A DNA stretch of 24,000 nt from Candidatus Saccharimonadales bacterium. GTDB taxonomy: Bacteria; Patescibacteriota; Saccharimonadia; Saccharimonadales; UBA4665. Positions 28 to 13,853 of the stretch are shown here, one piece after another; within the stretch, counting starts at the first letter, position 1, and every line of letters starts with the position of its first letter. The stretch is taken from positions 166,213-190,212 of the forward strand of contig DATIIL010000005.1 of assembly GCA_035479655.1 (NCBI GenBank). The letters run 5' to 3'. A program made the translations under genes and the position numbers. Under the pieces are notes generated by a model, which had not been told where the DNA came from, searched no databases, and was given only the letters and a program-made list of their open reading frames with translations.

Positions 28-86
28 CTACCGCTTTCGCTCTCTATAGAGCTCATCAGCACGACTATACATTCGTGGAGCAGTAG
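28..86 (-). ncRNA. Type III hammerhead ribozyme HH-A (canonical core)
   Basis: Minus strand reads CTACTGC-TC|CACGA-atgtatag-TCGTG-CTGATGA-GCTC-tataga-GAGC-GAAA-GCGGTAG. Stems I and II are hairpin-closed and stem III is open (7 bp including one G-U). The CUGAUGA and GAAA core is complete. Predicted cleavage is 3' of the C at 78. Confidence 0.9.
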
Positions 87-160
87 GCAGGCAAGTGATA
101 CAGAATAGGATTTGAGCGTCGCGGAAGCGACGAACGCGTCCAGGCATGCCTGACTACTGC
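80..160 (-). other. Long imperfect 3' UTR hairpin of cassette 1; distal arm doubles as hammerhead stem III strand
   Basis: Plus-strand arms gcagtaggcaggca (80-93) and tgcctgactactgc (147-160) are complementary except for one mismatch. An inner mini-hairpin gtcgc-ggaa-gcgac is present. The element lies between the stop codon at 186 and HH-A. Confidence 0.7.
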
Positions 161-185
161 TGGCTGGGCGCGGGGCCGCGGACGG

Positions 186-752
186 CTACGCGTCGATGAT
201 TTGCCAGTTGGCCGACGCCGTGGTGTGGCGGCGGATGAGCTTGCCGAGCTCCGTGTGGTCGTGCTCGGCGCCGAAGACGTAGATTTGCGTCCAGGGGACG
301 CACAGCTGGTCGTCGGTGCCGCCGGGCTCGTTGAATATCGACGTGCAGGTCATGACCACCACGTCGTCGCCCAGTTCGGCCACGAGCTGCTTGCGCAGGG
401 TGGCTTGCTCGGCGTCGGTGAACTGGTCGATGGCGCAGGCGTACGGCGGCTTGTGGCCGTCGAGCCCCAGGATCGACGCGGCGACCATCTTGGCCGTGGC
501 CATGATGGCGACGATGTCGCTTCCCGGCGCCACGTACACCTCGACGCCGTCGTAGGCGCCGTCCAGCGGCGATGTCGCCTGGACACGGGTGACCTGCGGG
601 TGGCCGTCGACAACCTTGGCCACCCGGTGGAGGGCGGCGGGGTCAACGGCGGCCGCGCCGATGGCCGGCTTCAGCGTAAACCAGCGGCGGGCGCCACTGG
701 CAAAGCTGTAGGTTACGCCAATCAGCTGATCGGCGACGGTGCGGGTATGCAT
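186..752 (-). CDS. Hypothetical protein, GC-rich cassette cargo family 1 (about 188 aa)
   Basis: ORF 186..776 trimmed to the ATG at 752, which has GAGGAG 7 nt upstream. Third codon positions are strongly GC-rich. The opposite-strand ORF 201..875 is an Arg/Gly/His-rich antisense shadow. I recognise no domain. There is weak colinear similarity to 1094..1618 and 1972..2535. Confidence 0.8.
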   Translation of the reverse strand: MHTRTVADQLIGVTYSFASGARRWFTLKPAIGAAAVDPAALHRVAKVVDGHPQVTRVQATSPLDGAYDGVEVYVAPGSDIVAIMATAKMVAASILGLDGHKPPYACAIDQFTDAEQATLRKQLVAELGDDVVVMTCTSIFNEPGGTDDQLCVPWTQIYVFGAEHDHTELGKLIRRHTTASANWQIIDA

Positions 753-783
753 CGAAGATCTCCTCTTCGTCGGCATGCTCAGC

Positions 784-836
784 GAAATGTGAGCTATAAA
801 AAGAGAAGCAACTTCTCTCCTTGTAGCTCACATTTC
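784..836 (-). promoter_or_regulatory. 5' leader hairpin of cassette 1 (GAGCTA/TAGCTC class)
   Basis: A perfect 13 bp stem pairs gaaatgtgagcta (784-796) with tagctcacatttc (824-836). An inner 7 bp helix pairs agagaag with cttctct. The hairpin sits about 30 nt upstream of the SD. The 3' arm can instead pair as GCTCA-n8-TGAGC. Confidence 0.65.
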
Positions 837-902
837 ACGCGTACGCAAAATCTATCTGTACACTATGTCTGCTAAAGTACCTCAGTAAACTGAAGTTAGC
901 TT

Positions 903-931
903 ATTATATAACTAATACTTGCGATTGTCCA
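903..931 (-). promoter_or_regulatory. Sigma70-type promoter of cassette 1
   Basis: Minus strand reads TGGACA-17 nt-TATAAT, starting 4 nt after the 3' end of HH-B. Confidence 0.65.
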
Positions 932-934
932 CAA

Positions 935-989
935 TACTGCTTTCGCTCTTTCAAGCTCATCAGCATAGACATACATCTATGGAGCAGTA
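935..989 (-). ncRNA. Type III hammerhead ribozyme HH-B (canonical core)
   Basis: Minus strand reads TACTGC-TC|CATAG-atgtatgt-CTATG-CTGATGA-GCTT-gaaa-GAGC-GAAA-GCAGTA. Stem II is capped by a GAAA tetraloop. Predicted cleavage is 3' of the C at 982. Confidence 0.9.
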
Positions 990-1063
990 GGCAGACGTGG
1001 TACAGAGAGGATGGGGTTAAACGTCGCAGCGCGACAACCGTGATCCAGATGTCTGACTACTGC
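984..1063 (-). other. Long imperfect 3' UTR hairpin of cassette 2
   Basis: Arms gcagtaggcagac (984-996) and gtctgactactgc (1051-1063) have a single mismatch. Inner helices are GGTT/AACC and gtcgc-agc-gcgac. The element lies between the stop at 1094 and HH-B. Confidence 0.7.
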
Positions 1064-1093
1064 TGCTCGACACCGAAATGCCGGGCGGGTTGG

Positions 1094-1618
1094 TCAACGG
1101 ACACAAACCTGCTGAACGGCCTTATCGATGATCTGCCCGATCTCCTCCAGCGGCAGCTTGCACCCGATGATCCGGATGGTAGCCGGCATGGAAGTGAGCA
1201 GGTCTTCGCTACCCCGAAGAGTGGCGTAGACGAGCACAACCACGTGCGGGCCGAGCTGATCGGCGATCCGGTCGCGCACCTCGTCACGCTGTTCCGGCTT
1301 GAGGCCGTAGCGCATGATGATGTGCATCGACGGGGCGCCGTCGATCCGCAGGAACGCTGCCAGAATGTTCGCCGCCTGGTTGGCGACGTCCTCGATGTCG
1401 GCCGTTTCCTGCACCATCACGATGTAGGATGCCAAGAGGTCATACCCCAGGACATCCGTGACAGCGGGAATGCTGTACAGGAGCTCGCCGCCCTGGTTGA
1501 ACGCAGCGAGCGAGCCACCGTGGCCACCCAGAATGTCGATGACGACACACGGCCTGCCATCGGCAGTACGGTCCGGAGCGGCCTTGATTCGGCCGCCGAA
1601 GAACTCGAGCTCGGTCAT
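1094..1618 (-). CDS. Hypothetical protein, GC-rich cassette cargo family 1 (about 174 aa)
   Basis: ORF 1094..1651 trimmed to the ATG at 1618 (MTELEFF...), which has GGAGGA 9 nt upstream. GC3 is high. The antisense ORF 1040..1753 is rejected. The block ...KPEQRDEVRDRIADQLGPHVVVLVYA aligns with TDAEQATLRKQLVAELGDDVVVMTCT of 186..752. Confidence 0.8.
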   Translation of the reverse strand: MTELEFFGGRIKAAPDRTADGRPCVVIDILGGHGGSLAAFNQGGELLYSIPAVTDVLGYDLLASYIVMVQETADIEDVANQAANILAAFLRIDGAPSMHIIMRYGLKPEQRDEVRDRIADQLGPHVVVLVYATLRGSEDLLTSMPATIRIIGCKLPLEEIGQIIDKAVQQVCVR

Positions 1619-1660
1619 GACTATGAATCCTCCCTTGTGTCGGAGACTCAACGTTTGGAG

Positions 1661-1708
1661 AACGCGAGCTGGGAAAAGGCAACAGATTGTCTTCTCTCAG
1701 CTCGCGTT
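1661..1708 (-). promoter_or_regulatory. 5' leader hairpin of cassette 2
   Basis: An 11 bp stem pairs aacgcgagctg (1661-1671) with cagctcgcgtt (1698-1708). The loop contains the ttgcctttt motif (minus strand) that recurs in the array 2 leaders. Confidence 0.6.
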
Positions 1709-1781
1709 GTCCACGCCCGGTACTGTTTCTATTTCTGTACCACTGTCTGCTAAAGTACCTCAACGGAGTTGAGACGATAAA

Positions 1782-1810
1782 ATTATAACATAAAACTGTT
1801 AGATTGGCTA
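1782..1810 (-). promoter_or_regulatory. Promoter of cassette 2 (extended -10)
   Basis: Minus strand reads TAGCCA-17 nt-(TGt)TATAAT. The -35 element abuts the 3' strand of HH-C stem III. Confidence 0.55.
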
Positions 1811-1861
1811 CTGCTTTCGCTCTATAGAGCTCATCAGCACGACTAGCATTCGTGGAGCAGT
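1810..1861 (-). ncRNA. Type III hammerhead ribozyme HH-C (canonical core)
   Basis: Minus strand reads ACTGC-TC|CACGA-atgctag-TCGTG-CTGATGA-GCTC-tata-GAGC-GAAA-GCAGT. Predicted cleavage is 3' of the C at 1855. Confidence 0.9.
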
Positions 1862-1936
1862 CATCAGACACAGATACAGGTTGGGGGAGCGCCGAAGGGC
1901 ACCGCAGCCAGCCGTGTAACCACGTCTGAGGACTGC
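1857..1936 (-). other. Long imperfect 3' UTR hairpin of cassette 3
   Basis: Arms gcagtcatcagac (1857-1869) and gtctgaggactgc (1924-1936) have one mismatch. An extra GC hairpin gcggcc-ggat-ggccgc lies between arm 2 and the stop at 1972. Confidence 0.7.
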
Positions 1937-1971
1937 TTGCCGCGGCCGGATGGCCGCAGTAGGGTGCTCGC

Positions 1972-2535
1972 TCAGTGCTTGATCCACGGGGCGGTGATGT
2001 TGGCCTCGGCCAGCAAGCCGTCCAGGCTGCGGATCGCCCACGTACAGTCCGTGATCTGCACCACGGTGACGTGCTTGAATTCCGGCTCGCTACCGCGGCG
2101 GTTGACGTTCTGCCGCGCCTTGTAGACGAGCACCTTGCCACTGCCTTCGAGCTTTTGGTTCAGCCACTTGTACAGCCGAGCCATCTCCTCGCCGGTCAGC
2201 GCCTGCAGCTCTGCGTCGAGCGCGACCACGTAGGGCACGAGCCGATCGTCGACGAGCAGCATCGGCTCGATGACGCTGATGGCCATGGCCATCACGCTTT
2301 CCAGCTGCAGGTCCTCGGGGTCGTCACTCACGTGTACCTCGAAGGTCTGCGTTCCGGAGAACGGGAGGGCCTTCGTGACTCGCGGCACGGTCTTCAGCAG
2401 CTCCACAGCGTACGCCATGACGTCGCTGCCGTAGCGTCCGAGGCCCCGATCGGCGATGTGGATCGTGAACTGAGCCTGGCCCGGTGCCACCGTGGTTGCG
2501 ATGGCTACCAGTGAACCGTTCTTGGATGTCTGCAT
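1972..2535 (-). CDS. Hypothetical protein, GC-rich cassette cargo family 1 (187 aa)
   Basis: The ATG at 2535 has GGAGGAGGAG 5 nt upstream. GC3 is high. The antisense ORF 1975..2514 is rejected. The pattern is colinear with the other two family 1 proteins (EVHVSDDPEDL...; TGEEMARLYKWLNQKLEGSGKVLVYKA). Confidence 0.8.
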   Translation of the reverse strand: MQTSKNGSLVAIATTVAPGQAQFTIHIADRGLGRYGSDVMAYAVELLKTVPRVTKALPFSGTQTFEVHVSDDPEDLQLESVMAMAISVIEPMLLVDDRLVPYVVALDAELQALTGEEMARLYKWLNQKLEGSGKVLVYKARQNVNRRGSEPEFKHVTVVQITDCTWAIRSLDGLLAEANITAPWIKH

Positions 2536-3205: not shown

Positions 3206-3234
3206 ATTATAACATGATTCTAGTTGCGTGGCTA
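3206..3234 (-). promoter_or_regulatory. Promoter of cassette 4 (first cassette of array 1)
   Basis: Minus strand reads TAGCCA-17 nt-(TGt)TATAAT. An 8 bp hairpin ggtctgtc-atgg-gacaggcc follows at the start of the transcript. The promoter is divergent from rpmF. Confidence 0.55.
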
Positions 3235-3319
3235 GCGCCCGCCGCCACCCTTGAGATTTCAACACGGTTCGGGTATAATATGACCAAATAATCAATCCAC
3301 AGTAAGGAGTCTTTTAGCT

Positions 3320-3505: not shown

Positions 3506-3562
3506 TACTGTCCGGCCGGTCCCGGTATACTAGGTATATGAACTGTAAAGGCGACGCAGAAG

Positions 3563-4596: not shown

Positions 4597-5281
4597 CGCC
4601 TATGCAACCTTTGCCCAAGAGACTTTGGGCATTACCTTTGACGACATCCAGCTGCTGATCACCGCCTTCACTCACCGCTCGTATCTAAATGAGCACAAAA
4701 AAAGCGCTAGCGAGCATAACGAGCGCCTAGAATTCCTGGGCGACGCCGTGCTGGAACTGGTCGTTACCGAATATCTATACGCTACCTTTAGCGAGCCCGA
4801 AGGTATCCTCACTAACTGGCGCAGTAGCTTGGTACGCACCGAAAGCATTGGTGCAGCCGCCGCCAAGTATGGTTTTGAGCCGTTGCTTCGCCTGAGTCGC
4901 GGTGAGCGGCGCGGCACCGACCGCGCCCGGGCGCAGATTCTGGCCAACAGTTACGAAGCGGTGGTGGGAGCGATTTACCTAGATAAGGGTTACGAAGCCG
5001 CGAAGGCCTTCATCACCAAGACCATCTTAAGCACCTTTAAACAGATTTTACAGACTGGCTCGTGGCTAGACCCCAAATCACACCTGCAGGAAGTGGCCCA
5101 GAGCCGCGACGGCCACACTCCGATGTACAAAGTATTGAGCGAAGAAGGCCCGGACCACGAAAAAGTCTTTACCGTAGGCGTCTTTGTGGGCGGCAAGCTG
5201 AAAGGCACCGGTGTGGGTCCGAGCAAACAAGCCGGCCAGCAAAAAGCAGCCGAAGCGGCGCTGGTTGGCTACGGCGACTAG
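4583..5281 (+). CDS. rnc: Ribonuclease III
   Basis: The catalytic signature NERLEFLGDAVLELVV and a C-terminal dsRBD (GPDHEKVFTVGVFVGGKLKGTGVGPSKQAGQQKAAEAAL) are present. Confidence 0.95.
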   Translation: MQDSSAYATFAQETLGITFDDIQLLITAFTHRSYLNEHKKSASEHNERLEFLGDAVLELVVTEYLYATFSEPEGILTNWRSSLVRTESIGAAAAKYGFEPLLRLSRGERRGTDRARAQILANSYEAVVGAIYLDKGYEAAKAFITKTILSTFKQILQTGSWLDPKSHLQEVAQSRDGHTPMYKVLSEEGPDHEKVFTVGVFVGGKLKGTGVGPSKQAGQQKAAEAALVGYGD

Positions 5282-5286
5282 ATTCG

Positions 5287-6972
5287 CTAGAGATCGGTGT
5301 ACATATTGGTGTCCAGTGCGGTACGCAACCGCGTGGCATGGGCCGAGGTGTGCTCGCCGTAAGCTAGGCGCATAACTTCGGAGCCGATCCAGCGCGCCTG
5401 CCACTCGGCCGGGCTCAGCTCGGGCCGGGCGGCTGTTGCGCTCAGACAAGGTTCCACGCGGATACGCAGCGGGTCGTCGGCCATAAAGACTCGAGCGGCA
5501 TCTACCATAGTCGGATCGCTGAGTATGTCTCGCTTAAAACCGGGACCTACTTTGTCCGCGCGGTCCCCAAGTAGATCACTAAACAAGGCGGGGTCGAAGC
5601 GGAGCTGTCCATCCCCATCCGCAAATAAGCTGTACATAAATGTGGGCCCGAGAATTTTCGAGATTTTCCACCTTTCGGCCGACGACAGCTGGTTCGGGAG
5701 CTGTTCGCCAAATATGCTGCGTGCGAACTTATACGCATAGTTGACCACGTAGTCTTCATGGACAACCAGGCTGCCGTCTGGCTCGAGCGTGGAGTCCTCT
5801 AGGGCACGTTTGAAGTTGACGTGTTTCGTTTTATCAAATCGCTCATTATGTTCCACTAAGATGGTCGGAATGAGCTCGGCAACCGGATAGCCGAGCGCGG
5901 CAAGGCGTTCGCGCGGTTGCGCGAGGCCGTAAGCCATACCACTCATCAACCACAGCAGCGCGTGATCGTTGCTTGGCCGGAGGAAGGAATTTCGTGCCTC
6001 AATGTAGTCTTCGACGACCCGCAGCTGGGTACGATGGGTGGTAATGCGAGGGGTGATGCGCTGATTCTTGATGTCATCGAGCAAGTCGGCCGATCCGCTG
6101 ATAGAGATGTACACGCAGTCCGAAATAGCCGCATTCAGGCCGGAAACCACCCGCAGCGTCTGTTCGATCCGAGCCGCGTCGCTGCCAATAATCGGGCGGC
6201 CATGCCGCTGCCCGTTCTGCTCTGTAATCTGGTAAGCGCTGATATTGAGGTGGTCGCCGAGCGGCAGCACATACAGGCCGAGTTCGGCCGCTGCGTCGGC
6301 CAAGCTCGTTCGCAGGAGCGTCTCGCGCTCGTCCAGCGCTTCTGGCGGGCCGGGAGTAAGACGGATTTCACCGAGGCCCGCGCCGCCGTCATAGTATCCA
6401 CGCTGGTGGGTCTCGGGGCCAAAGCGCCACTCTACCATACCCATAGCTTGGCTGTAGGCGAGCATTTCGTCGTAACTTATGCCTTTGGGCGGCTTGGGGC
6501 TAGCCAGGGTCGGGGTAGAGAAACGCTTATAGACCAGGTAATTTACCCAGTCCTTGACGGTGAAATTGGGGATGCTGTCTAGCCAGCGCTGCTTTTTCTG
6601 GGCTTCGGCGGCAGTTGTAGGTACCAACTGGCCGATGGTGGCGACGGCATCAAGGCGCAGCTCGGCAATTTTGGCCTCGCGCGCTGCTTCATCGGCGGGA
6701 TGCTGGACGCTCGACGGCAAGCCAATTGCCGCATAGATTGATCCGCTGTCCAGCAAGAACTCTATCTCTTTGCTCGCAAGAAACAACAGTGGCTCACCAT
6801 GCTCGCCGTGGGCAATTTCTTGCTGGACGGTGAGCATTCGGTCGCGCATAAAGACTCGTTCGTCGAAGGGCAGCAGCGTCTCGGCGGCCAGAGTTTTAGA
6901 AGGGTAGGCCTCTGTCAGCATAGTTGCAGGATTATAGTATAGCTTGGGTTGTTTATCAATATTGGATGCCAA
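5287..6972 (-). CDS. Hypothetical protein (561 aa), backbone-like composition
   Basis: A long uninterrupted ORF with backbone-like GC, convergent with rnc. The internal plus-strand ORFs look like antisense shadows. I can name no domain. Confidence 0.8.
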   Translation of the reverse strand: MASNIDKQPKLYYNPATMLTEAYPSKTLAAETLLPFDERVFMRDRMLTVQQEIAHGEHGEPLLFLASKEIEFLLDSGSIYAAIGLPSSVQHPADEAAREAKIAELRLDAVATIGQLVPTTAAEAQKKQRWLDSIPNFTVKDWVNYLVYKRFSTPTLASPKPPKGISYDEMLAYSQAMGMVEWRFGPETHQRGYYDGGAGLGEIRLTPGPPEALDERETLLRTSLADAAAELGLYVLPLGDHLNISAYQITEQNGQRHGRPIIGSDAARIEQTLRVVSGLNAAISDCVYISISGSADLLDDIKNQRITPRITTHRTQLRVVEDYIEARNSFLRPSNDHALLWLMSGMAYGLAQPRERLAALGYPVAELIPTILVEHNERFDKTKHVNFKRALEDSTLEPDGSLVVHEDYVVNYAYKFARSIFGEQLPNQLSSAERWKISKILGPTFMYSLFADGDGQLRFDPALFSDLLGDRADKVGPGFKRDILSDPTMVDAARVFMADDPLRIRVEPCLSATAARPELSPAEWQARWIGSEVMRLAYGEHTSAHATRLRTALDTNMYTDL

Positions 6973-6984
6973 AAGGGCTCTTGG

Positions 6985-7013
6985 TTGACATCAGAGGAGA
7001 TAATCTGTAAAAT
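6985..7013 (+). promoter_or_regulatory. Promoter of rpsP
   Basis: TTGACA-17 nt-TAAAAT lies about 50 nt upstream of the rpsP ATG. Confidence 0.6.
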
Positions 7014-7065
7014 ACCCTAAGATTCTTTGGCAATCTAAAGTTAAGAAAGAGAGAATGATTCAACA

Positions 7066-7497
7066 ATGTTAGCTATCCGCATGCAACGCACCGGCCGCAA
7101 AGGCCACGCCATGTTCCGCGTCGTGGTTCAAGACTCGCGCGTAACGCCGACTAGCGGTAAAGTCGTTGCACTGCTTGGCAGCTACGACCCGCACACCAAG
7201 AGTGCCGCCTTGGACAAAACTCAGGCCGAAAATTTTCTAAAGAATGGCGCCCAGCCGTCTGACCGCATTGCTGCGCTATTCAAGCAAGAAGGCATTAGAC
7301 TGCCGGAGTGGGTAACGCTAGCCACTAAGAAAGTCGGCAAGCTGCGTAACCCGGAAAAACTGCGCAAGAACCAGCCGAAAGAGGCGGCAGCTCCTGTCGA
7401 AACCCCGGCTGAAGAACCGGCCGCCGAAGCAGCAGCAGCCGAGGCGACAAGCGAAGCTCCAGCTGCCGAAACAGACGCGGAGAAAACTGAAGCATAG
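7066..7497 (+). CDS. rpsP: 30S ribosomal protein bS16 with Ala/Glu/Pro-rich C-terminal extension
   Basis: MLAIRMQRTGRKGHAMFRVVVQDSR is the canonical S16 N-terminus. Confidence 0.95.
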   Translation: MLAIRMQRTGRKGHAMFRVVVQDSRVTPTSGKVVALLGSYDPHTKSAALDKTQAENFLKNGAQPSDRIAALFKQEGIRLPEWVTLATKKVGKLRNPEKLRKNQPKEAAAPVETPAEEPAAEAAAAEATSEAPAAETDAEKTEA

Positions 7498-7529
7498 CTC
7501 ACGTTTTACCAGTTAATCGCATAAATTGC

Positions 7530-7561
7530 AAAAAAGATTACCACATTGGTAATCTTTTTTG
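7530..7561 (+). terminator. Rho-independent terminator after rpsP
   Basis: A 9 bp stem agattacca/tggtaatct has an A-run before it and a T6 run after it. A TTGTTATAAT promoter-like box follows. Confidence 0.7.
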
Positions 7562-7601
7562 TTATAATTAGTTAACGAGTTAACTAAAGGAGCTTCCGCG
7601 C

Positions 7602-8027
7602 ATGAGCAGCATAGACCAGCAATTCGTAGAATTTATCGTAAAGTCCCTGGTTGGCAAACCTGACGCCGTACAGATAGAACGGCGCATCGATGAGAAAGGT
7701 GTGTTATTAGAACTAACCGTTGATCCCGAGGATTTGGGTCGGGTAATTGGCAAACGCGGCGCGACCGCACAGTCGCTGCGCACACTGCTGCGCGCCTTGG
7801 GCACCAAGAACGACGCCCGCTACAACCTTAAAATTGTGGATAATGGCGAGCCGGGCATGAGTCACGGTGGTAGCAGCACGAGCGATGACAGTGGTAGCAT
7901 GAGCACGCCGTCTGATGACGACGATGACGCCGTAGCCTCCACCGCCCACGACGACACCGAGTCCGAGAACAGCGTGGTGAGCAAAACCCGCAAAGAGCTA
8001 GAAGAGCTAGACGATCTGGACGTGTAA
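7602..8027 (+). CDS. KH-domain RNA-binding protein (YlqC/KhpA-like) with acidic Ser/Asp tail
   Basis: DLGRVIGKRGATAQSLRTLL contains the GXXG KH motif. AAGGAG lies upstream. The gene sits in the usual position after rpsP. Confidence 0.85.
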   Translation: MSSIDQQFVEFIVKSLVGKPDAVQIERRIDEKGVLLELTVDPEDLGRVIGKRGATAQSLRTLLRALGTKNDARYNLKIVDNGEPGMSHGGSSTSDDSGSMSTPSDDDDDAVASTAHDDTESENSVVSKTRKELEELDDLDV

Positions 8028-8176
8028 ACGTCGGCCGCATAAAAACTGTTGTCAAAGTTCTTACGCTGCGTTACACTGAATTTTAGTCGACCACGACTGA
8101 CCTTAAAAACAAAAACTGTATGAGCTCATGCGAGCCACGTCGTTTGCAAGAACGATCTGGGAGCTTTATATGTGGC

Positions 8177-8207
8177 AAAAAGACCGGCAAATATGTCGGT
8201 CTTTTTG
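8177..8207. terminator. Bidirectional rho-independent terminator
   Basis: The stem agaccg/cggtct is flanked by A5 and T5. It can terminate the KH gene (plus strand) and the GHKL operon (minus strand). Confidence 0.75.
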
Positions 8208-8282
8208 TTTGTCTTTGTTATTTGGCTGAGTATAGTGCCACCGCTCAGACCCGCCACGCACATCGAGATATGCGAGAAGGGA

Positions 8283-8362
8283 GTGAGCGGTGGGCAGAAC
8301 GGGATTCGTTGGGGCCGCTTGCGCGACCTCATACGAGCCGTTCTGCCCACCTGCCTGCTCAC
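8283..8362 (-). other. Long imperfect 3' hairpin of the HTH-GHKL operon
   Basis: gtgagcggtgggcagaacgg (8283-8302) pairs with ccgttctgcccacc..tgctcac (8338-8362) with a 5 nt bulge. The segment tgagcggtgg (8284-8293) is also complementary to ccaccgctca at 8238-8247. Confidence 0.55.
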
Positions 8363-8395
8363 GCAGACAAATCGCTCCTGAGAGGTATTTACTTG

Positions 8396-10066
8396 TTATT
8401 CAGTTTCGTCACCCGCGCGCTTCCGCGAGCGGCTGGCGCTGGGGATGATGATCAGCTCCGCGTAGGGACCGGCCTTCAGGTCGATCGGTGCCCGGGTGAT
8501 CTCCAGGTCCAGTTCCAGCGACAGCGCCACCAGCAGTTCCAGGGTGAGCCACTCCTGTAGGTGCATGATCCTGCGATCGTGCTCCGTGGTGTGCTCACCC
8601 TTGGTTTCGTCCATCAGCACCCATGTGGGATGCCGAATGTTGAACGTCAGGATGCACTCGTCGTGGCTGTATTCCCACAACCGGTCAGAGGCCAGGGCCT
8701 CATGTGCGTACCGAAGCGGGAAACCACGACGCGGATCGTGCGGCCGGCGTTCGGGCCGTGGGCCGACCACCTTACGGCGTTTAGAAGACGTGCCCGTCTT
8801 GGGCGTGGCTTCTTCCCGTCGCTTGGTGGCCGCCAGGGCATCCTCCTGGGAGGGCAGGAACCTGGCCAGGTCGGCCAGATCGCTGTTCTTCCGGAAGAGT
8901 TCGCGCAGCCGTTCCAGCGACCGCTGTCCGAGTCGGGCATGACGCTCCTCGCGCAGCGCTTCGCGCTCGTTCTCGAGGAGGTTGCTGCCGTACCGGCTGA
9001 ACCAGGTATCTACGACGAAGTAGAAGTTGGTCAGCAGGTCGTTGGCCACGAACAGGTCACGGGACTTACCCAGCTCAAGGTGTTCGACGGTGATCATACC
9101 CTCAAAGTAGCCCGAGCGCAGTGCGCTGATGGCTTCCTTGATGGAGTCGATCTGTTGCCACTGCGTCCCCATGAGCTGGGTAGAGAATTTACCCTTGACC
9201 GGGATGGGGTTGTCCGGATCCTCTTTGCTGCGGACCCACACTTCTCCTTCCCGTTGTCCGCTGTCGCCGCGTCGAGCCTTGAACAGCTCGAACGTGACGC
9301 GGCCGCAGACGCTGTCTTCGATGGTGACGATGTCGAGCCGCTCGCCCCGGAATTCATGGGGGTCGATGGTTCGCCATTCCACGCTACCGTCGGCAGCGAT
9401 CAGTACGGCCAGCACCGTAGTGCCCAGGCGCCGCATGGCCGCGCTAAACCGGCCGCGGATGATCGATTCCACGTCGTTGAGCGACGCGATGCCGATCGTC
9501 CTGTCCTGCGTGATCTCGTTGAGACGGACCATAGTCCGCCACCCGTTGATCATCGGCAGGCCGGCCAGCCGGATGAACGGCGCAGCCGGGTTTGGGCTGA
9601 AGGTCGGGCGGGTGGTGAGCGGGATCTGCACGGCCTTTTGGGCCTTGATCTTCTCCTGCTCAAAGGTCCACACGTTGACCACCGGACTGCCCGCGGGTTG
9701 GCTCCAGAACTCGAACAACCGGCACTTGGCCAGCGGCGAGATCAGACCCAGCCCGAAGCGTCCGATGCTTCCCGGCTTCTTGATGCCCTTGCCGACAGTC
9801 AGAAGTGCTTCATTGAATCGCTCTTCCGTCACGCCTTCGCCATTGTCACAGACGATGATCGAGCGCTTGGGAAGGTCGACGCCAATGAAGATCGTCGGAG
9901 CTCCAGCGTCGAGGGCGTTCTGTACGCCTTCGGCCACGGTTTGAGCCAGCGAGGGATAGGTGTTGGAGTACGTCATGAACGTCTCCCCCATGTGCACCCC
10001 CGCATCGACCATCCGGACATCTCCGTGCGGCGGCCGACCCGGCTGAGGGGCCGATTTCGTTGGCAT
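8396..10066 (-). CDS. GHKL-superfamily ATPase (HATPase_c_3 / MORC-like N-terminal domain), 556 aa
   Basis: Bergerat-fold motifs are in order: N box AEGVQNALDAG, G1 box CDNGEGV, G2 box GRFGLGL. AGGAGG lies 4 nt upstream of the ATG at 10066 and overlaps the upstream gene's stop codon. GC3 is high. The C-terminal two-thirds are unassigned. Confidence 0.85.
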   Translation of the reverse strand: MPTKSAPQPGRPPHGDVRMVDAGVHMGETFMTYSNTYPSLAQTVAEGVQNALDAGAPTIFIGVDLPKRSIIVCDNGEGVTEERFNEALLTVGKGIKKPGSIGRFGLGLISPLAKCRLFEFWSQPAGSPVVNVWTFEQEKIKAQKAVQIPLTTRPTFSPNPAAPFIRLAGLPMINGWRTMVRLNEITQDRTIGIASLNDVESIIRGRFSAAMRRLGTTVLAVLIAADGSVEWRTIDPHEFRGERLDIVTIEDSVCGRVTFELFKARRGDSGQREGEVWVRSKEDPDNPIPVKGKFSTQLMGTQWQQIDSIKEAISALRSGYFEGMITVEHLELGKSRDLFVANDLLTNFYFVVDTWFSRYGSNLLENEREALREERHARLGQRSLERLRELFRKNSDLADLARFLPSQEDALAATKRREEATPKTGTSSKRRKVVGPRPERRPHDPRRGFPLRYAHEALASDRLWEYSHDECILTFNIRHPTWVLMDETKGEHTTEHDRRIMHLQEWLTLELLVALSLELDLEITRAPIDLKAGPYAELIIIPSASRSRKRAGDETE

Positions 10067-10074
10067 GACCCCTC

Positions 10075-10818
10075 CTAGTTGTCGGTCGGACGCTGGCCGC
10101 GAGCACGCTGTCCGTCGTGCAGCCGCTCCGAGTTGAGCCCTTCGGTGAGAAGGACCATGTCGAAGACCACCTTCGGACCGACCAGCTCGCGAACTTGCGC
10201 CCGTTGGGCGGGCGTGTAGCGACCCGACATCACTTCCCGAAGCAGCGGTGCGGCCTTGCCGAACGCTTCACCCAGCTGGATGGCGATAGCCATCAAGTCG
10301 GGCGCGCCCGGCGTGGCGTTTGCCGCTGCCGCCGCGGTTGCTACGGGGACGGTCGCGGTGGTGGCAGGTTCGTCACCCGGGTTGTAGGCCCGATCGCCGA
10401 GCTTCTCGCGAAGCTTGGCTTGGGCTTTCTTGAGCCGGTCGCCATACTCCGTTTGCAGCGCGGTGAGCGTCTTCGTCGGCTTCAGGAACTTCGAGTCGCC
10501 GCGGGCGGCATTGAGCACCGCCTGCGACTGCTTGACGTGGCCGATCCGCATGGCCTGTGCCAGGTCGATGACCCGGTAGGCCAGCAACTGCCCGACGTAG
10601 TACTCGAGTTCATTGACCTCGCGCGTCGGACCGTTGACCGCTTCCAACAGGTGCCAGAGGCGGTTGATGTGTGCGCCGGTCGGCGGGTGTTTCCCGCTGA
10701 GCCATCCCTGTACAGTACCAGGAACGGTCACCGTGAAGCCCGCCACCAGGCGGAGGTCGAGTCCTGCTGCACGCAGCTCTTCGACGAGCTGGTTGGCAAG
10801 GCTCCGGCTCTCGGCCAT
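10075..10818 (-). CDS. Putative XRE-like helix-turn-helix protein (247 aa)
   Basis: ORF 10075..10887 trimmed to the ATG at 10818 (MAESRSL...), which has GAGGAGG 5 nt upstream. The N-terminal segment VAGFTVTVPGTVQGWLSGKHPPTGAHINRLWHLL resembles an HTH_XRE motif. The gene appears translationally coupled to the GHKL gene. Confidence 0.75.
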   Translation of the reverse strand: MAESRSLANQLVEELRAAGLDLRLVAGFTVTVPGTVQGWLSGKHPPTGAHINRLWHLLEAVNGPTREVNELEYYVGQLLAYRVIDLAQAMRIGHVKQSQAVLNAARGDSKFLKPTKTLTALQTEYGDRLKKAQAKLREKLGDRAYNPGDEPATTATVPVATAAAAANATPGAPDLMAIAIQLGEAFGKAAPLLREVMSGRYTPAQRAQVRELVGPKVVFDMVLLTEGLNSERLHDGQRARGQRPTDN

Positions 10819-10901
10819 GGCGCCTCCTCTCTTCTTGTGAAACCAGCACCGGCGGTTGCCGATGCTTCTTACAATCTCTCCTCTCAAGAGTGATCATGCT
10901 A

Positions 10902-10930
10902 GTTATACTATTTTTCAGGCTCTGATACAA
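10902..10930 (-). promoter_or_regulatory. Candidate promoter of the HTH-GHKL operon
   Basis: Minus strand reads TTGTAT-17 nt-TATAAC. The leader contains the hairpin gcatcggc-aacc-gccggtgc. Confidence 0.45.
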
Positions 10931-10952
10931 GCATGAGCGTAGCCGTCGGGGC

Positions 10953-10985
10953 ATAATAAAAGAGCCGAACGAGTCGGCTCTTTTG
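10953..10985 (-). terminator. Rho-independent terminator after the LPXTG protein gene
   Basis: An 8 bp stem agagccga/tcggctct is flanked by A and T runs on both sides. Confidence 0.75.
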
Positions 10986-11008
10986 GTTGATTTTCTAGAG
11001 TGTTTGTC

Positions 11009-11659
11009 TTAGGCGTTCTGCGCGCGACGGTGGCGCAAGTAGTAACCGACGTAACCAGCCACAGCGACGATGCTCGAAATGATGAACACGTTGCTACCGG
11101 TACCGGTGTCCGGCAAAACCGGAGGGGTTACTGGCGGCGTAGGAGGGGTCGGTGGGGTCGGAGGAGTCGGCGGGGTAACAGGGGTACAACTCTGAGTACC
11201 ACCGTGCAACGAGCCGAGTAGCAGACCCTTAGTGTATTGCGGGCCACCGTTTGCGTCCGTGGCGTTCGAACCGCGCAGCAGGTCAACCTGGTAGAAGCAG
11301 TCAGGCAATTTTACGTTAATGGTGTGCGTGCCCGGAGCGAACGTTTCGGTTTTGTGGGCAAACAGTTTTTGCTGATCGTAGGGCTGGCCCTTGTCGGCGT
11401 TTGGCGCTTGCCAAGCGGCAAAGGTTACGGCCTGGGTACAGTCGGTGCCGCTCACGATAACCGTGGCGCTCACCGTGCCGTCGTTGTTCAGCACAAAACG
11501 GCTGTTTGATTGACCAACAGTGTCTCTGTTACCAACCGTGGTCACCGTACAGGTGGTCGACGTGCTGGTAGCAGTGTCGGCGCTCACAACAGCGGGGACG
11601 AAGCTCAAAAGGCTTATCACGCTGGCTGCGCCTAGCAGAGTACGCTTAAAAGTATTCAT
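11009..11659 (-). CDS. LPXTG-anchored surface protein with Pro-Thr linker
   Basis: The signal peptide is MNTFKRTLLGAASVISLLSFVPAVVSA. A (TPP)n linker is present. The sorting signal is LPDTG, a hydrophobic segment and RHRRAQNA. AGGAG lies upstream. GC content matches the backbone. Confidence 0.85.
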   Translation of the reverse strand: MNTFKRTLLGAASVISLLSFVPAVVSADTATSTSTTCTVTTVGNRDTVGQSNSRFVLNNDGTVSATVIVSGTDCTQAVTFAAWQAPNADKGQPYDQQKLFAHKTETFAPGTHTINVKLPDCFYQVDLLRGSNATDANGGPQYTKGLLLGSLHGGTQSCTPVTPPTPPTPPTPPTPPVTPPVLPDTGTGSNVFIISSIVAVAGYVGYYLRHRRAQNA

Positions 11660-11692: not shown

Positions 11693-11721
11693 ATTATACT
11701 ATCATAAACACAATATGTCAA
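11693..11721 (-). promoter_or_regulatory. Consensus promoter driving the LPXTG gene, directly after HH-E
   Basis: Minus strand reads TTGACA-17 nt-TATAAT exactly. Confidence 0.7.
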
Positions 11722-11741
11722 GCATGTTACCAAGCTTGCGG

Positions 11742-11792
11742 CCGCTTTCGCTGTTTCCAGCTCATCAGCATGAACACACATTCATGGAGCGG
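11742..11792 (-). ncRNA. Type III hammerhead ribozyme HH-E (canonical core)
   Basis: Minus strand reads CCGC-TC|CATGAA-tgtgtg-TTCATG-CTGATGA-GCTG-gaaa-CAGC-GAAA-GCGG. Predicted cleavage is 3' of the C at 11787. Confidence 0.9.
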
Positions 11793-11890
11793 TAAAGCAG
11801 ACACAGAGTTTGATAGTAGAGTAGGAAGTTGTTTTAGTCCGAGGACCAAAACACCAATCCACATCCACATCTCTGTGAATGCTTTACCGC
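11789..11890 (-). other. Long imperfect 3' UTR hairpin of cassette X1
   Basis: The 20 nt arms gcggtaaagcagacacagag (11789-11808) and ctctgtgaatgctttaccgc (11871-11890) have a 2 nt internal mismatch. An apical stem gtttt.gtc-cgag-gac.aaaac is present. Confidence 0.7.
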
Positions 11891-11947
11891 CCGTTGAAGG
11901 GCAGGCTACTCCCAGAGTGCATGGGTGAGGGTAGTGACCCCTTCAGG

Positions 11948-12655
11948 TTAGACGACCACGATCTTCAGGCCCGGGGGCATGTCGCCGCCGAAGAAGCCGC
12001 GGATGTCGTCTTCGACCTGTTGCTGGATGCGCTGCCGCTCGGCCTCGTACGCCGCTTCAGCCGCTGCCGCCGCGCGCAGTTCGCCCGTCGGGTCGGCGAA
12101 GTCCATGATGACTCCTTCGACCAGCGGGTCGATGTTCTCGTCGTCCTTGTAGAGCGCGGCGACGCGCGTGAAGGCGACGTCGTCGTGCTCCAGGTTGACC
12201 GCCAGCACGTGGCTGACACCGTCGACCGAGAGCAGCCGCTCGCGCAGGCTGTCCAGGTCGTCGACCTGCGGCAGGTCGGCCCCGATGCAGACGTCGCCGC
12301 TCTTGAGCATGACGCTCATGAGGACGCTCTGCAGCGCCGCGATCAGCGTCTCCCGCTGGGCGGGGTCGCTGATGGTGACGGTGCCGATGGCCATGACGGT
12401 CTCGGTGCCGCCGTTGCCGTCGGGTCGCCAGCCGGACTCGGCGTCGTCCATGTCGTGCAGGTCGCGGTCCCAGACCACGGACTGCACGCCGGTGACGCCG
12501 GGGAGCTGAGTCAGCAGCACCAGGTGCTGCCAGTCGTTGGGCACCCGCCCGGCGACGCGGATCTCGATCTGGTCGGGCTCCGTGCCGGCGATGGCGGTGA
12601 ACGAGCCGAAGAACGGCTGGAAGAACGGCCGTTGGTTGTCGGGCGTCTCGAACAT
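11948..12655 (-). CDS. Hypothetical protein, GC-rich cassette cargo family 2 (235 aa)
   Basis: ORF 11948..12712 trimmed to the ATG at 12655 (MFETPDN...), which has AAGGAG 6 nt upstream. GC3 is high. The antisense ORF 11879..12730 is rejected. It shares long identical blocks with 13059..13598. Confidence 0.8.
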   Translation of the reverse strand: MFETPDNQRPFFQPFFGSFTAIAGTEPDQIEIRVAGRVPNDWQHLVLLTQLPGVTGVQSVVWDRDLHDMDDAESGWRPDGNGGTETVMAIGTVTISDPAQRETLIAALQSVLMSVMLKSGDVCIGADLPQVDDLDSLRERLLSVDGVSHVLAVNLEHDDVAFTRVAALYKDDENIDPLVEGVIMDFADPTGELRAAAAAEAAYEAERQRIQQQVEDDIRGFFGGDMPPGLKIVVV

Positions 12656-12694
12656 TCGAAACTCCTTGGTACTCTTCACTTCACTCGCCCAGTG

Positions 12695-12734
12695 CGAGCT
12701 AGCAAAAGGCAAAATATTACCTTCTGTTAGCTCG
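12695..12734 (-). promoter_or_regulatory. 5' leader hairpin of cassette X1
   Basis: The stem cgagcta (12695-12701) pairs with tagctcg (12728-12734), with an inner AAGG/CCTT helix and a ttgcctttt loop motif. The 3' arm can instead form CTCGC-actgg-GCGAG. Confidence 0.55.
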
Positions 12735-12812
12735 TACTGGACGCACTATCAAATACATTGTGTCTGCTAAGGTACTTAGCCATAGGCAAGAAGCCGTTGA
12801 CGAAGCGCACTT

Positions 12813-12841
12813 ATTATACAATTCGCGCGCTTTTATGTCAA
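12813..12841 (-). promoter_or_regulatory. Consensus promoter of cassette X1
   Basis: Minus strand reads TTGACA-17 nt-TATAAT exactly, 10 nt after the 3' end of HH-F. Confidence 0.75.
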
Positions 12842-12850
12842 CGGAGGTAA

Positions 12851-12903
12851 ACCGCTTTCGTCTTTTTAGACTCATCAGCATGAACACGCATTCATGGAGC
12901 GGT
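12851..12903 (-). ncRNA. Type III hammerhead ribozyme HH-F (canonical core)
   Basis: Minus strand reads ACCGC-TC|CATGAA-tgcgtg-TTCATG-CTGATGA-GTCT-aaaa-AGAC-GAAA-GCGGT. Predicted cleavage is 3' of the C at 12897. Confidence 0.9.
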
Positions 12904-13001
12904 AAAGCAGACACAGAGAGTTTGATAGTAGAGTAAGAAGTTGTTTCGTCCGAAGACGAAACACCAACCGCATCCACATCTCTCTGTGAATGCTTTACCG
13001 C
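12899..13001 (-). other. Long imperfect 3' UTR hairpin of cassette X2
   Basis: The 22 nt arms at 12899-12920 and 12980-13001 have the same 2 nt internal mismatch as X1. The apical 8 bp stem at 12943-12962 reads C(UUCG)G on the minus strand. Confidence 0.7.
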
Positions 13002-13058
13002 CCGTTGAAGGGCAGGCTACTCCCAGAGTGCATGGGTGAGGGTAGCGAGCCTTTCAGG

Positions 13059-13598
13059 TCAGACGACGTCCGCCAGGACCTCCTCGATCGTCTCCTCGAC
13101 ACTCGAGTCACCCTGGTACAGGATGGCGATCCGCGTGAGCGGGGCGCCGTGGAGGAGGTTGACCGCCAGCACGTGGCTGACACCGTCGACCGAGAGCAGC
13201 CGCTCGCGCAGGCTGTCCAGGTCGTCGATCGCCGGGATGTCCTCAACGATGCAGTAGTCGTCGTTCAGGAACATGACGCTCTCGATGACGCTCTGCAGCG
13301 TCGCGATCAGCGTCTCCCGCTGGGCGGGGTCGGCGATCGTGATGGTGGCGGTGGCCACGGTCGTGACGGCTTCCACGGCCTCGGCGGCGTTGTGGCTGTC
13401 GGCGAGGTCGCTCAACTCGTGCAGGTCGCGGTCCCAGACCACGGACTGCATGCCGGCGACGCCGGTGAGCAGGGTCTGCAGCACCAGGTGCTGCCACGCA
13501 TTCGGCACCTCGCCCATGATGCGGAGCTCGATGATCTCGGGCTTCACGCCGGCGGCGATGGTGACCGAACCGATGAACGGCACCCTGTCCTCGGACAT
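13059..13598 (-). CDS. Hypothetical protein, GC-rich cassette cargo family 2 (179 aa)
   Basis: ORF 13059..13697 trimmed to the ATG at 13598 (MSEDRVPF...), which has AAGGAG 7 nt upstream. GC3 is high. The antisense ORF 12990..13670 is rejected. Confidence 0.8.
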   Translation of the reverse strand: MSEDRVPFIGSVTIAAGVKPEIIELRIMGEVPNAWQHLVLQTLLTGVAGMQSVVWDRDLHELSDLADSHNAAEAVEAVTTVATATITIADPAQRETLIATLQSVIESVMFLNDDYCIVEDIPAIDDLDSLRERLLSVDGVSHVLAVNLLHGAPLTRIAILYQGDSSVEETIEEVLADVV

Positions 13599-13634: not shown

Positions 13635-13680
13635 GTGCGAGCTACCAAAAGGCAACGAATTACCTTCTAGTAGCTCGCAC
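13635..13680 (-). promoter_or_regulatory. 5' leader hairpin of cassette X2
   Basis: A 10 bp stem pairs gtgcgagcta (13635-13644) with tagctcgcac (13671-13680). The loop carries ttgcctttt (minus strand). An alternative CTCGC-actgg-GCGAG hairpin lies downstream. Confidence 0.6.
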
Positions 13681-13761
13681 CGCAGGCGTACTATCAAACA
13701 AATCTAGTGTCTGCTAATGTGCTTTGCCATACGTAATAAAACCGATGACAAAGATAGTAAT

Positions 13762-13790
13762 ATTATACAATTTGATGTTGACTATGTCAA
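13762..13790 (-). promoter_or_regulatory. Consensus promoter of cassette X2
   Basis: Minus strand reads TTGACA-17 nt-TATAAT exactly, about 10 nt after the 3' end of HH-G. Confidence 0.75.
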
Positions 13791-13800
13791 CTAAGTATTG

Positions 13801-13853
13801 ACCGCTTTCGCTGTTTCCAGCTCATCAGCACAAATACACATTTGTGGAGCGGT
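13801..13853 (-). ncRNA. Type III hammerhead ribozyme HH-G (canonical core)
   Basis: Minus strand reads ACCGC-TC|CACAAA-tgtgta-TTTGTG-CTGATGA-GCTG-gaaa-CAGC-GAAA-GCGGT. Predicted cleavage is 3' of the C at 13847. Confidence 0.9.

Follow-up and report, generated by a model that had tools for sequence, protein, structure and literature searches.

The window analysed here, the whole stretch of 24,000 nucleotides (nt) from a Candidatus Saccharimonadales bacterium (GCA_035479655.1, contig DATIIL010000005.1, positions 166,213 to 190,212), contains two adjacent paralogous genes, X1 and X2, in which blocks of perfect or near-perfect identity alternate with stretches that have diverged to the level of chance. 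Both genes are on the minus strand, a correction to the preliminary description of this DNA, and together with a distant paralog, X3, they form an array in which each gene is followed by a putative hammerhead ribozyme. X1 and X2 are best explained as a young, diversifying paralog pair with patchy homogenization, and the pair exposes a conserved system of ribozyme-terminated cassettes. The X1 protein is identical to the NCBI hypothetical protein VLF91_05305, and the coding frame of both genes is certain because the GC content at third codon positions (GC3) far exceeds that at second positions (GC2; X1, 0.945 versus 0.394; X2, 0.956 versus 0.38). The X genes and the shared blocks occupy the following positions:

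11948..12655, minus strand: X1 open reading frame (ORF; from the ORF list), 235 amino acids, cassette cargo, with the Shine-Dalgarno sequence AAGGAG upstream
13059..13598, minus strand: X2 ORF, 179 amino acids, cassette cargo, closest paralog of X1
13957..14523, minus strand: X3 ORF, 188 amino acids, third cassette of the array, distant paralog of X1 and X2
12192..12264 (= 13156-13228), minus strand: 73-nt exact block, encoding DDLDSLRERLLSVDGVSHVLAVNL (X2 residues 125-148, helix and strand)
12323..12368 (= 13287-13332), minus strand: 46-nt block with one mismatch (exact runs of 31 and 14 nt), encoding DPAQRETLIA(A/T)LQSV, the start of the long helix
12453..12486 (= 13417-13450), minus strand: 34-nt exact block, encoding (V/M)QSVVWDRDLH, the family signature
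11870..11934 (= 12981-13045), minus strand: 65-nt exact block in the 3' untranslated region (UTR), covering the first 3' UTR hairpin and the 5' arm of the long 3' hairpin
12389..12452 (approximate, from the codon alignment), minus strand: hypervariable central segment of X1 (DDAESGW...MAIG); X2 counterpart at ~13354-13416

Mosaic identity of X1 and X2 and its probable origin

Across 537 aligned nt X1 and X2 are 74.5% identical, and identity in 30-nt windows ranges from 0.37, the chance level at this composition, to 1.00, which is the sharp alternation of identical and unlike segments, rather than an even spread, that the preliminary description had reported. The 73-nt perfect block is present as described; a block given as about 48 nt with one mismatch was located as 46 nt, a 32-nt block (12455-12486 and 13419-13450) has a maximal exact extent of 34 nt, and the identical 3' UTR segment (11887-11934 and 12998-13045) is exact and in fact reaches 65 nt. 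That this last segment belongs to a hammerhead-terminated cassette had been missed. The termini and a central loop had been called unrelated, which holds for the first 5–13 residues and the central loop, the only parts that cannot be aligned, but not for the C-terminus, where the final 30 residues are collinear and strongly diverged (BLASTP, 57% identity over 172 amino acids, beginning at residues 14 (X1) and 7 (X2) and extending to the end). Likewise, the supposed Ala/Glu-rich tail of about 55 residues in X1 is indeed Ala/Glu-rich additional sequence, but takes the form of a 48-codon insertion relative to X2 ahead of the last two codons; as these codons are common to both genes, which end in the shared sequence GTCGTCT(A/G)A, the tail is an insertion or deletion within a conserved frame. 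The hypervariable central segment is of equal length in the two genes and has chance-level identity (windows of 0.37–0.47; nonsynonymous divergence (dN), 1.19).

Identity also varies along the flanks, with the first 78 nt of the 3' UTR 96% identical, the remainder 86% and the 5' UTR 75%, and the X1 hammerhead is 88% identical to that of X3 versus 85% to that of X2. Of all the pairs that can be formed from 17 cassette ORFs in this genome, X1-X2 alone has an exact match longer than 18 nt. The longest substring common to X1 and codon-shuffled X2 is at most 14 nt, and the 73-nt run exceeds the longest run in all 10,000 codon-column shuffles (maximum, 54).

The 179 aligned codons comprise 91 that are identical, 11 with silent differences and 77 with amino acid changes, with third codon positions the most alike of the three. 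At the 102 sites with an identical amino acid, 91 identical codons were observed versus 67.7 expected at saturation, a value reached in none of 20,000 simulations (P<5e-5), and thus codon bias alone lacks the power to explain the silent identity; for the 23 identical codons of the 73-nt block, the corresponding probability at saturation under the codon usage of the genes themselves is ~4e-6. The silent divergence is also uneven. Silent differences occur at 1 of 43 sites in the three identical blocks versus 10 of 55 elsewhere (Fisher P=0.02), synonymous divergence (dS) is ~0.03 in the blocks versus 0.30 outside, about ten-fold (regional values along the gene: 0.20, 0, 0.46, 0.07, 0.13, 0.05, 0.61), and the longest silent-identical run covers 33 of 75 informative codons (X2 residues 88-147; P=0.011). 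The dN/dS ratio is 1.57 for the whole alignment and ~1.5 when the blocks are excluded, rising to 2.6 in the loop. In phmmer comparisons, X1 and X2 match at E=2e-60 versus 1e-6 to 1e-15 for other paralog pairs.

This uneven silent divergence is what gene conversion or recombination predicts, and the suggestion of such a process in the preliminary description is to that extent supported. We hold with moderate confidence that X1 and X2 are the cargo of two adjacent, self-contained cassettes and that the mosaic arose through tandem duplication, partial conversion or recombination, and accelerated replacement. In this scenario the whole cassette would have been duplicated in tandem recently, after which one or more partial events of gene conversion or recombination would have kept or re-made identity in X2 residues 51-60, ~82-148 and the 3' UTR; the loop and the two terminal parts of the gene would have remained older. 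Accelerated amino acid replacement (dN/dS >1) would then have centered on the disordered loop and the termini, and the 48-residue tail would have been lost by X2 or gained by X1. Tandem copies with conserved flanks would supply the substrates for duplication and conversion, as in X1 and X2, which we infer to be the youngest pair of a lineage-specific, fast-evolving family.

The family is small and divergent. X3 shares 24–29% identity with X2, together with the GVQxVVW and DSL motifs (phmmer E, 1e-8 to 2e-9), and an iterated search (jackhmmer) of the cassette proteins connects eight paralogs, so that the family has at least eight members in this genome. When 1.8 billion representative proteins were searched exhaustively with a profile, the only full-length relatives beyond the window were P0004, P0005 and P0007, and one further match, to a 913-amino-acid protein, was weak; contig 2 of assembly GCA_964634155.1 encodes P0005 and P0007, and P0004 comes from a Joint Genome Institute (JGI) metagenome. 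A word-based search with X2 returned X1 and X2 only. X1-X3, as well as C1-C3, the cargo proteins of a second array in the window, had no significant match in Pfam, PHROGs, PADLOC or NCBIfam. C1-C3 are orphans (C1-C2, 21% and C1-C3, 26% identity in a three-way alignment), and a database search with the C family returned itself alone. Homology between the X and C families was rejected as a candidate (hhalign probability 2%; no link by jackhmmer). The order of secondary-structure elements is predicted to be alike in C1 and X2, with a weak model for C1 (mean predicted local distance difference test score (pLDDT), 64), and all of the window cassettes may carry one very divergent fold family.

An AlphaFold model of X2, built on a six-sequence alignment (pLDDT, 82; predicted template-modelling score (pTM), 0.73), has the order beta-beta-alpha-beta, loop, beta-alpha-beta-alpha-beta-beta-alpha and is predicted to be a tandem beta-alpha-beta fold of the ferredoxin/ACT-like type. 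The best Foldseek matches were the regulatory (ACT) domains of aspartate kinase and threonine deaminase and S6-like folds, all of them weak and none significant (E of at least 0.01, whole-chain TM score ~0.27), with single-domain matches at a target TM score (TMt) of up to ~0.6 and no viral structural match to the X2 model. On this model the shared blocks fall on the strand that follows helix 1, the first part of the long helix, and helix 3 with the next strand, while the only low-confidence stretch (X2 residues 67-78, pLDDT <50) lies inside the hypervariable segment (X2 61-81). The proposal that the genes diversify on a conserved fold is in line with the retained fold, the agreement between the variable segment and this loop-like part, and dN/dS above 1 outside the blocks. 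The Ala/Glu-rich tails of X1 (~186-233), P0005 and P0004 end in a common motif, (F/L)FG(G/D)D..P(G/D) (FGGD..PG in X1), and because of this motif the tail is probably an ancestral feature of the family that was lost by X2 (and X3). A C-terminal signal is one speculative possibility for the tail.

The preliminary description had compared the pair to polymorphic immunity or effector families, a comparison that was not borne out by the database searches above or by an adjacent toxin gene; the neighbors are other cassettes, a gene for an LPXTG protein and trmD, and no secretion or defense domain was found. No N-terminal hydrophobic, signal-like segment was seen by eye in the X proteins. X1 and X2 are like polymorphic toxin/immunity and surface-antigen families in their tandem paralogs, conserved scaffold, hypervariable segments, dN/dS above 1 and patchy identity, and unlike them in having no toxin, immunity, secretion or defense domain and in that conversion is seen in one pair only.

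The mosaic could also have formed by a single duplication without recombination, the blocks being a constrained core with codon-biased silent sites and the rest having been point-substituted under relaxed or positive selection. The blocks do coincide with the conserved motifs GVQSVVW, DPAQRE and DSLRE and map to regular secondary structure in the AlphaFold model, synonymous choice is narrow at a GC3 of 0.95 (codon homozygosity of 0.4–1.0 per amino acid), the equal length of the loop fits substitution in place, and the shared tracts occur in no other paralog pair. This explanation is strained by the silent identity of the 73-nt block under the genes' own codon usage, by the clustering of silent differences at the ends of the gene with none in 33 consecutive informative codons, and by the ten-fold difference in dS; further, the blocks are just 25–50% conserved in the other paralogs, and constraint alone thus does not predict 100% identity. 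Several points nonetheless weigh against a history of conversion. X1 and X2 are the only two close sequences, too few for a formal breakpoint test (GARD or RDP), and with 11 silent differences in total the silent-site tests reach P of ~0.01–0.02, with no significance (P=0.066) for four- and six-fold codons alone. The GC3 bias of 0.95 depresses dS and inflates dN/dS, purifying selection explains part of the pattern because the blocks coincide with the most conserved motifs of the family, and conversion is no general property of these arrays, as conversion tracts are seen in no other cassette pair. With so few silent differences and a GC3-inflated dN/dS, constraint without recombination is unlikely but keeps an appreciable share of the probability.

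Other explanations fare worse. The preliminary description had raised targeted diversification, and hypermutation of set segments on a fixed scaffold, by a diversity-generating retroelement (DGR) or similar, would suit the sharp alternation of variable and invariant segments and the preserved loop length; DGRs are also common in bacteria of the candidate phyla radiation. The differences, however, have no adenine bias (A in X1 or X2 at 35 and 38 of 137), with all substitution types occurring, the repeat search of the window gave only cassette repeats and no template-like copy of the variable segment, and no reverse transcriptase was recognized in Pfam scans of the 26 larger window ORFs. The lack of adenine bias led to the rejection of a DGR mechanism, and targeted hypermutation by a DGR or similar is very improbable; the variable regions, moreover, are spread across the whole protein rather than limited to a C-terminal variable region. 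It is also improbable, if less so, that the blocks owe their identity to nucleotide-level constraint on cis-acting RNA or DNA elements within the ORFs and not to their history: the cassettes are rich in functional RNA structure and the 65-nt identical block is non-coding, but the other six paralogs share runs of at most 13 nt with X1 or X2 despite residing in the same cassette type, and the blocks keep the reading frame of conserved protein motifs. An equally small chance falls to an assembly artefact, in which strain variants or paralogs were joined into chimeric genes. The source is a metagenome-assembled genome (MAG) and the cassettes are repeats at which short contigs of other assemblies break, yet X1 and X2, with unchanged protein sequences and neighboring genes, are found on two large contigs, C1 and C3 are reproduced exactly under a Logan source, P0005 and P0007 occur on Logan contigs of run SRR9179561, and both ORFs are intact with strong frame-specific GC3.

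Cassette anatomy and the complementarity of cassette ends

The window contains six cassettes, three in the X array and three in the array at 28..2535, each of which reads, on the minus strand, as a sigma-70 consensus promoter, a 5'-terminal hairpin, a 5' box, a leader hairpin, a Shine-Dalgarno sequence, a GC3-rich ORF, a 3' box and a type III hammerhead. The cargo ORFs have a GC3 of 0.81–0.96 versus 0.60–0.79 in housekeeping genes, and the intergenic regions of the cassettes (3' UTR, hammerhead, promoter and leader) are ~50% GC.

11740..11794, minus strand: type III hammerhead of the X1 cassette (RF00008, 32.2 bits, E=2.8e-4), predicted to cleave after GCUC at ~11787
12850..12904, minus strand: type III hammerhead of the X2 cassette (RF00008, 41.0 bits, E=8.9e-7)
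13800..13854, minus strand: type III hammerhead of the X3 cassette (RF00008, 35.2 bits, E=3.8e-5)
28..2535, minus strand: second array of the same cassette type, with ORFs (C1-C3) at 186-776, 1094-1618 and 1972-2535 and hammerheads at 28-87, 935-989 and 1809-1862
12813..12841, minus strand: X1 promoter, TTGACA-17-TATAAT (12/12), directly after the X2 hammerhead
13762..13790, minus strand: X2 promoter (12/12)
14679..14707, minus strand: X3 promoter (11/12, with a TG extension)
11693..11721, minus strand: promoter after the X1 hammerhead (12/12), facing the LPXTG-protein gene at 11009-11659
12692..12737, minus strand: X1 leader hairpin (GUACGAGCUA...UAGCUCGCAC; GAGCU...AGCUC); X2 copy at 13635-13681

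All six window hammerheads have a complete CUGAUGA...GAAA core and a predicted GCUC^ cleavage site, located 104–158 nt from the stop codon, and a three-helix type III layout in which stems I and II are closed by loops and stem III is open. At gathering thresholds an Rfam search of the window found nothing and the hammerheads appear only with E-value thresholds, their scores (32.2–41.0 bits; E of 9e-7 to 3e-4; the 28-87 copy unreported) being below the RF00008 gathering score of 48.5, and therefore a default Rfam scan misses all six. The low scores are due to a longer loop I, a shorter stem II and loop II, and non-consensus stem sequences, not to defects in the core. In an alignment of 82 distinct hammerhead sequences, gathered with a search pattern that required the core, the GC base at stem III, and a stem I of 4 bp or more, 92.7% of cells are paired (slid controls, 24–48%) and 13 of 18 pairs have double changes. 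Based on these features, the window hammerheads are putative self-cleaving ribozymes of type III.

A promoter-like sequence directly follows five of the six window hammerheads (four found by scan or by eye), while the 28-87 copy, near the window edge, is followed only by a partial TTGATA. No terminator-like site was found downstream of any window hammerhead; two coding-strand terminator-like sites between ORFs and hammerheads overlap the cassettes' own 3' hairpins, and the 3' UTR is structured (z=-6.0). The leader hairpin, with the layout GUGCGAGCUA, an inner stem with GCCUUUUG, and UAGCUCGCAC, followed by UGGGCGAGUG, has 21 pairs in an RNAalifold consensus of 13 leaders, 16 of them with compensatory changes. 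It has no matching Rfam family and may be an undescribed cis-regulatory element. The UGGGCGAGUG tail could alternatively pair with CUCGC of the leader stem.

A hammerhead-like sequence at ~2633-2690 on the minus strand, downstream of an ORF at 2894-3295, has the core CCGAUGAG (U4 to C), is preceded by ...CUUGUCGUC and a hairpin, and was undetected by Rfam; it may be a degenerate or variant ribozyme marking a seventh cassette.

The two boxes of each cassette are complementary to one another, and the 3' box ends at the predicted cleavage site.

12735..12770, minus strand: X1 5' pairing box (UUAGCAGACAC..UUUGAUAGU), complementary to the X1 3' box
~13680-13717, minus strand: X2 5' box
~14605-14640, minus strand: X3 5' box
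11794..11835, minus strand: X1 3' pairing box (ACUAUCAAA..GUGUCUGCUUUACC), immediately 5' of the cleavage site
12904-12945, minus strand: X2 3' box
13854-13895, minus strand: X3 3' box

The 5' box has the consensus ARGYACYUUAGCAGAC, and a core shared by the cassettes pairs AGCAGAC with GUCUGCU, while other parts are specific to a cassette, pairing UUUGAUAGU with ACUAUCAAA in X1 and X2, UUGUUAGUUUG with CAAACUAACAA in X3 and GUGGUACAGA with UCUGUACCAC in C2. For 11 cassettes of this genome, the mean duplex energy is -31.0 kcal/mol for cognate versus -20.8 kcal/mol for non-cognate combinations (permutation P<5e-5). When full-length processed mRNAs (650–1110 nt) were folded, eight of the 11 minimum free energy (MFE) structures contained a 5'-3' panhandle of 16–31 bp, which in several extends to the penultimate nucleotide; the long-range pairing is present in the full-length MFE structures of X2 and X3 and absent for X1. 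That the boxes are a terminal inverted repeat or belong to an invertible segment is unlikely, as they lie inside the conserved unit and end at the cleavage site, and their position strictly within the promoter-to-ribozyme unit favors a role in RNA.

Cassettes across Saccharibacteria and their proposed working

X1 and X2 carry the annotation 'hypothetical protein' in a Candidatus Saccharimonadales MAG, and the window overlaps positions 358,292-378,831 of CAZWKP010000001.1 (497,713 bp) in GCA_964634155.1, the assembly meant here by this genome. At least 12 further cassettes, all in one direction, occupy positions 1-11550 of a region on the second contig of that assembly (CAZWKP010000002.1:50233-70895); this array, which ends adjoining rlmH, encodes a DUF4419 protein and adds five paralogs to the X family. 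One hammerhead in this region has a large stem II insertion.

A scan with the hammerhead pattern, using one genome per species, returned >120 loci, and most among those listed belong to Saccharibacteria, with Candidatus Nanosynbacter sp. TM7-053 amongst the genomes that have cassette loci of a more general type. In the Saccharibacteria loci an ORF of 80–260 codons, usually higher in GC than its surroundings and drawn from many unrelated families, ends 40–200 nt before the ribozyme, and in most of them the box UUGACAAGCAG is found 430–980 nt upstream, with a promoter and a 5' hairpin before it and a ribosome-binding site after it. This general-type 5' box is complementary to CUGCUUGUCA beside stem III, and the variable parts of the boxes are on their own also cognate-specific in the general type (P=4.5e-4). 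These results rely on the comparison of cognate with non-cognate pairs, as a control in which the 3' 60 nt were reversed was poor (21 of 43 still paired in the general type). The variant with the UUAGCAGAC box and long arrays is rare and was found in this genome. A metagenome scan with the window-type 3' motif and the hammerhead returned one contig, the contigs that encode P0004 have a similar AGCAGAC-type 3' hairpin arm, and a scan of viral contigs with the hammerhead pattern gave one unrelated match only.

The cargo is mostly unannotated, with the exception of DUF4419, Tad4-like and PHROG 2169 proteins. One cargo protein among the Saccharibacteria loci matches the Pfam family Tad4 (E=4.4e-6), whose members are phage inhibitors of type I Thoeris, and the commonest cargo of oral Saccharibacteria matches PHROG 2169, a membrane protein in the category 'moron, auxiliary metabolic gene and host takeover'. 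The cassettes mark a pool of fast-evolving, compositionally foreign orphan genes in Saccharibacteria that are plausible players in epibiont-host or phage conflict; X1 and X2 are the youngest members of this pool.

Some cassettes occur on contigs of about their own length. A Logan contig (L128; SRR9179561, 1021 nt) holds exactly one cassette with both ends at hammerhead GCUCC, and on each of two JGI contigs (L122 and L123; ~950 nt) a lone ORF has incomplete cassette flanks, and the contig carries no hammerhead. A circular element of ~1 kb was rejected, since L122 and L128 have no terminal overlap; the ends of L128 are most likely assembly breaks at the repeated ribozyme. For annotation, the cassettes account for the contig breaks of ~1 kb seen in these genomes and for their orphan 'hypothetical proteins'.

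The layout suggests a mechanism in which the hammerhead would cut the nascent transcript co-transcriptionally after GCUC. This cut, taking the role of an intrinsic terminator, would leave the mRNA with a 2',3'-cyclic phosphate at a defined 3' end. Once released, that end would pair with the 5' box of the same mRNA, and the resulting panhandle would stabilize or regulate the mRNA; together with the 5' hairpin it could bury both ends against exonucleases or offer a double-stranded processing site. The downstream fragment, with its 5'-OH, would be degraded, so that each cassette would be insulated from its neighbor. In Bacillus subtilis, the 5'-OH product of the glmS ribozyme is degraded by RNase J1. 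It is possible, though short of probable, that Saccharibacteria possess an undescribed, phylum-wide RNA device of this kind: portable cassettes with mRNAs released by hammerheads and closed by panhandles, the cassettes carrying hypervariable, GC3-rich, mostly orphan genes, including a phage-moron-like membrane protein and one Tad4-like anti-defense protein, and multiplying into arrays where paralogs such as X1 and X2 diversify under positive selection, with 5' boxes of the form UUGACAAGCAG (here UUAGCAGAC) and 3' boxes of the form CUGCUUGUCA (here GUCUGCU) abutting the cleavage site. Weighing against the proposed mechanism, the MFE structure of the X1 3' UTR contains a local hairpin that sequesters the 5' strand of stem III and competes for the box strand, and a fair sense-versus-antisense test of G-U pairs gave P=0.09, which does not prove selection at the RNA level, with antisense duplexes more stable in most cassettes of this genome. 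Ribozyme cleavage, pairing at the RNA level and any effect on stability are all predictions. Because the X1 hairpin competes for the same strand, the ribozyme may be conformationally controlled.

Hundreds of bacterial hammerheads were reported in 2011, and their role in bacteria has been an open question since. In prophages, several hammerheads flank single genes of varying identity and transcript processing has been proposed (Perreault et al. 2011, PMC3088659), while a 2019 review considered the purpose of bacterial hammerheads to be still undefined and in need of more work (PMC6765202). The arrays are like the prophage clusters (PMC3088659, PMC6765202) in having several hammerheads of the same orientation between genes of changing identity, with a proposed cutting of long transcripts into gene-length mRNAs and an unsettled function. 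Unlike those clusters, they lie among housekeeping genes of a Saccharimonadales chromosome, with no phage-gene matches among the scanned window proteins, and each unit has its own consensus promoter, a structured leader and cassette-specific 5'-3' complementarity that ends at the cleavage site. Literature searches of incomplete coverage returned no paper tying hammerheads to Saccharibacteria, TM7 or Patescibacteria, and per-unit promoters, the leader, cassette-specific pairing and chromosomal Saccharibacteria arrays are not described in the searched literature.

Comparisons can be drawn with other known systems. Phage morons are autonomous promoter-gene-terminator units of deviant composition, and the cassettes are moron-like in having their own promoter, one accessory gene and a deviant composition and in being inserted between conserved genes (rpsP/KH and trmD). 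They differ in their ribozyme 3' end in place of an intrinsic terminator, in their tandem arrays and in their chromosomal location with no recognizable prophage, and the likeness is one of analogous design, not of membership. Integron cassettes share the one-direction arrays, the mostly orphan cargo and a conserved, imperfect inverted-repeat structure after each ORF, but are promoterless and served by a common promoter (Pc), whereas the cassettes here have their own TTGACA-17-TATAAT promoters and, unlike attC, a 3' structure made up of a ribozyme and RNA pairing boxes. No integrase was found among the Pfam matches of the window or of the second-contig array, and the attC core GTTRRRY was not searched for. 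Alike in layout to integron cassettes as they are to morons in design, the cassettes lack what defines either system. Pairing between 5' and 3' UTRs occurs in the icaR mRNA of S. aureus and the hbs mRNA of B. subtilis, and stems for RNase III processing flank rRNAs. The cassettes resemble these in their long-range complementarity flanking an ORF or RNA, thought to control stability, translation or processing, and differ in that the pairing is coupled to a self-cleaving ribozyme that would make the 3' partner and in that the module is found on dozens of unrelated genes.

The ribozyme is thus in a fixed place, after an ORF, abutting a box that is complementary to the 5' UTR of its own transcript, and before the next promoter, and the layout recurs on dozens of unrelated genes in one phylum. 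Given this fixed and recurring position, a vague association of hammerheads with bacterial genes becomes testable as mRNA 3'-end formation, stability or insulation. If the proposed working is true, it would give the bacterial hammerhead a concrete role, in ribozyme-made mRNA ends and insulation, and the system could be tested in cultured Nanosynbacter strains.

Neighboring genes in the window

The X array is situated between the LPXTG-protein gene and trmD and is part of an accessory stretch within the rpsP-KH...trmD neighborhood. The LPXTG-anchored protein (11009-11659, minus strand) has a (PTP)n linker, and its gene has no 5' box and no hammerhead after it. Between the KH-domain gene and the cassette array, at 8396-10887 on the minus strand, are a GHKL/HATPase_c_3 protein (556 amino acids) with weak TmtA, sacsin-like and BbrUII-like matches and a 270-amino-acid protein with no family match (GC, 0.63–0.65), and the two look like an accessory, possibly defense-related insertion in the rpsP...trmD region. 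Elsewhere in the window, a 341-amino-acid minus-strand ORF at 17622-18647 with no Pfam match is probably a repeat-rich protein high in Gly, Ala, Thr and Asn, and its internal repeats at 17657-18482 are direct and measure 91, 31 and 25 nt (families D6, D9 and D10).

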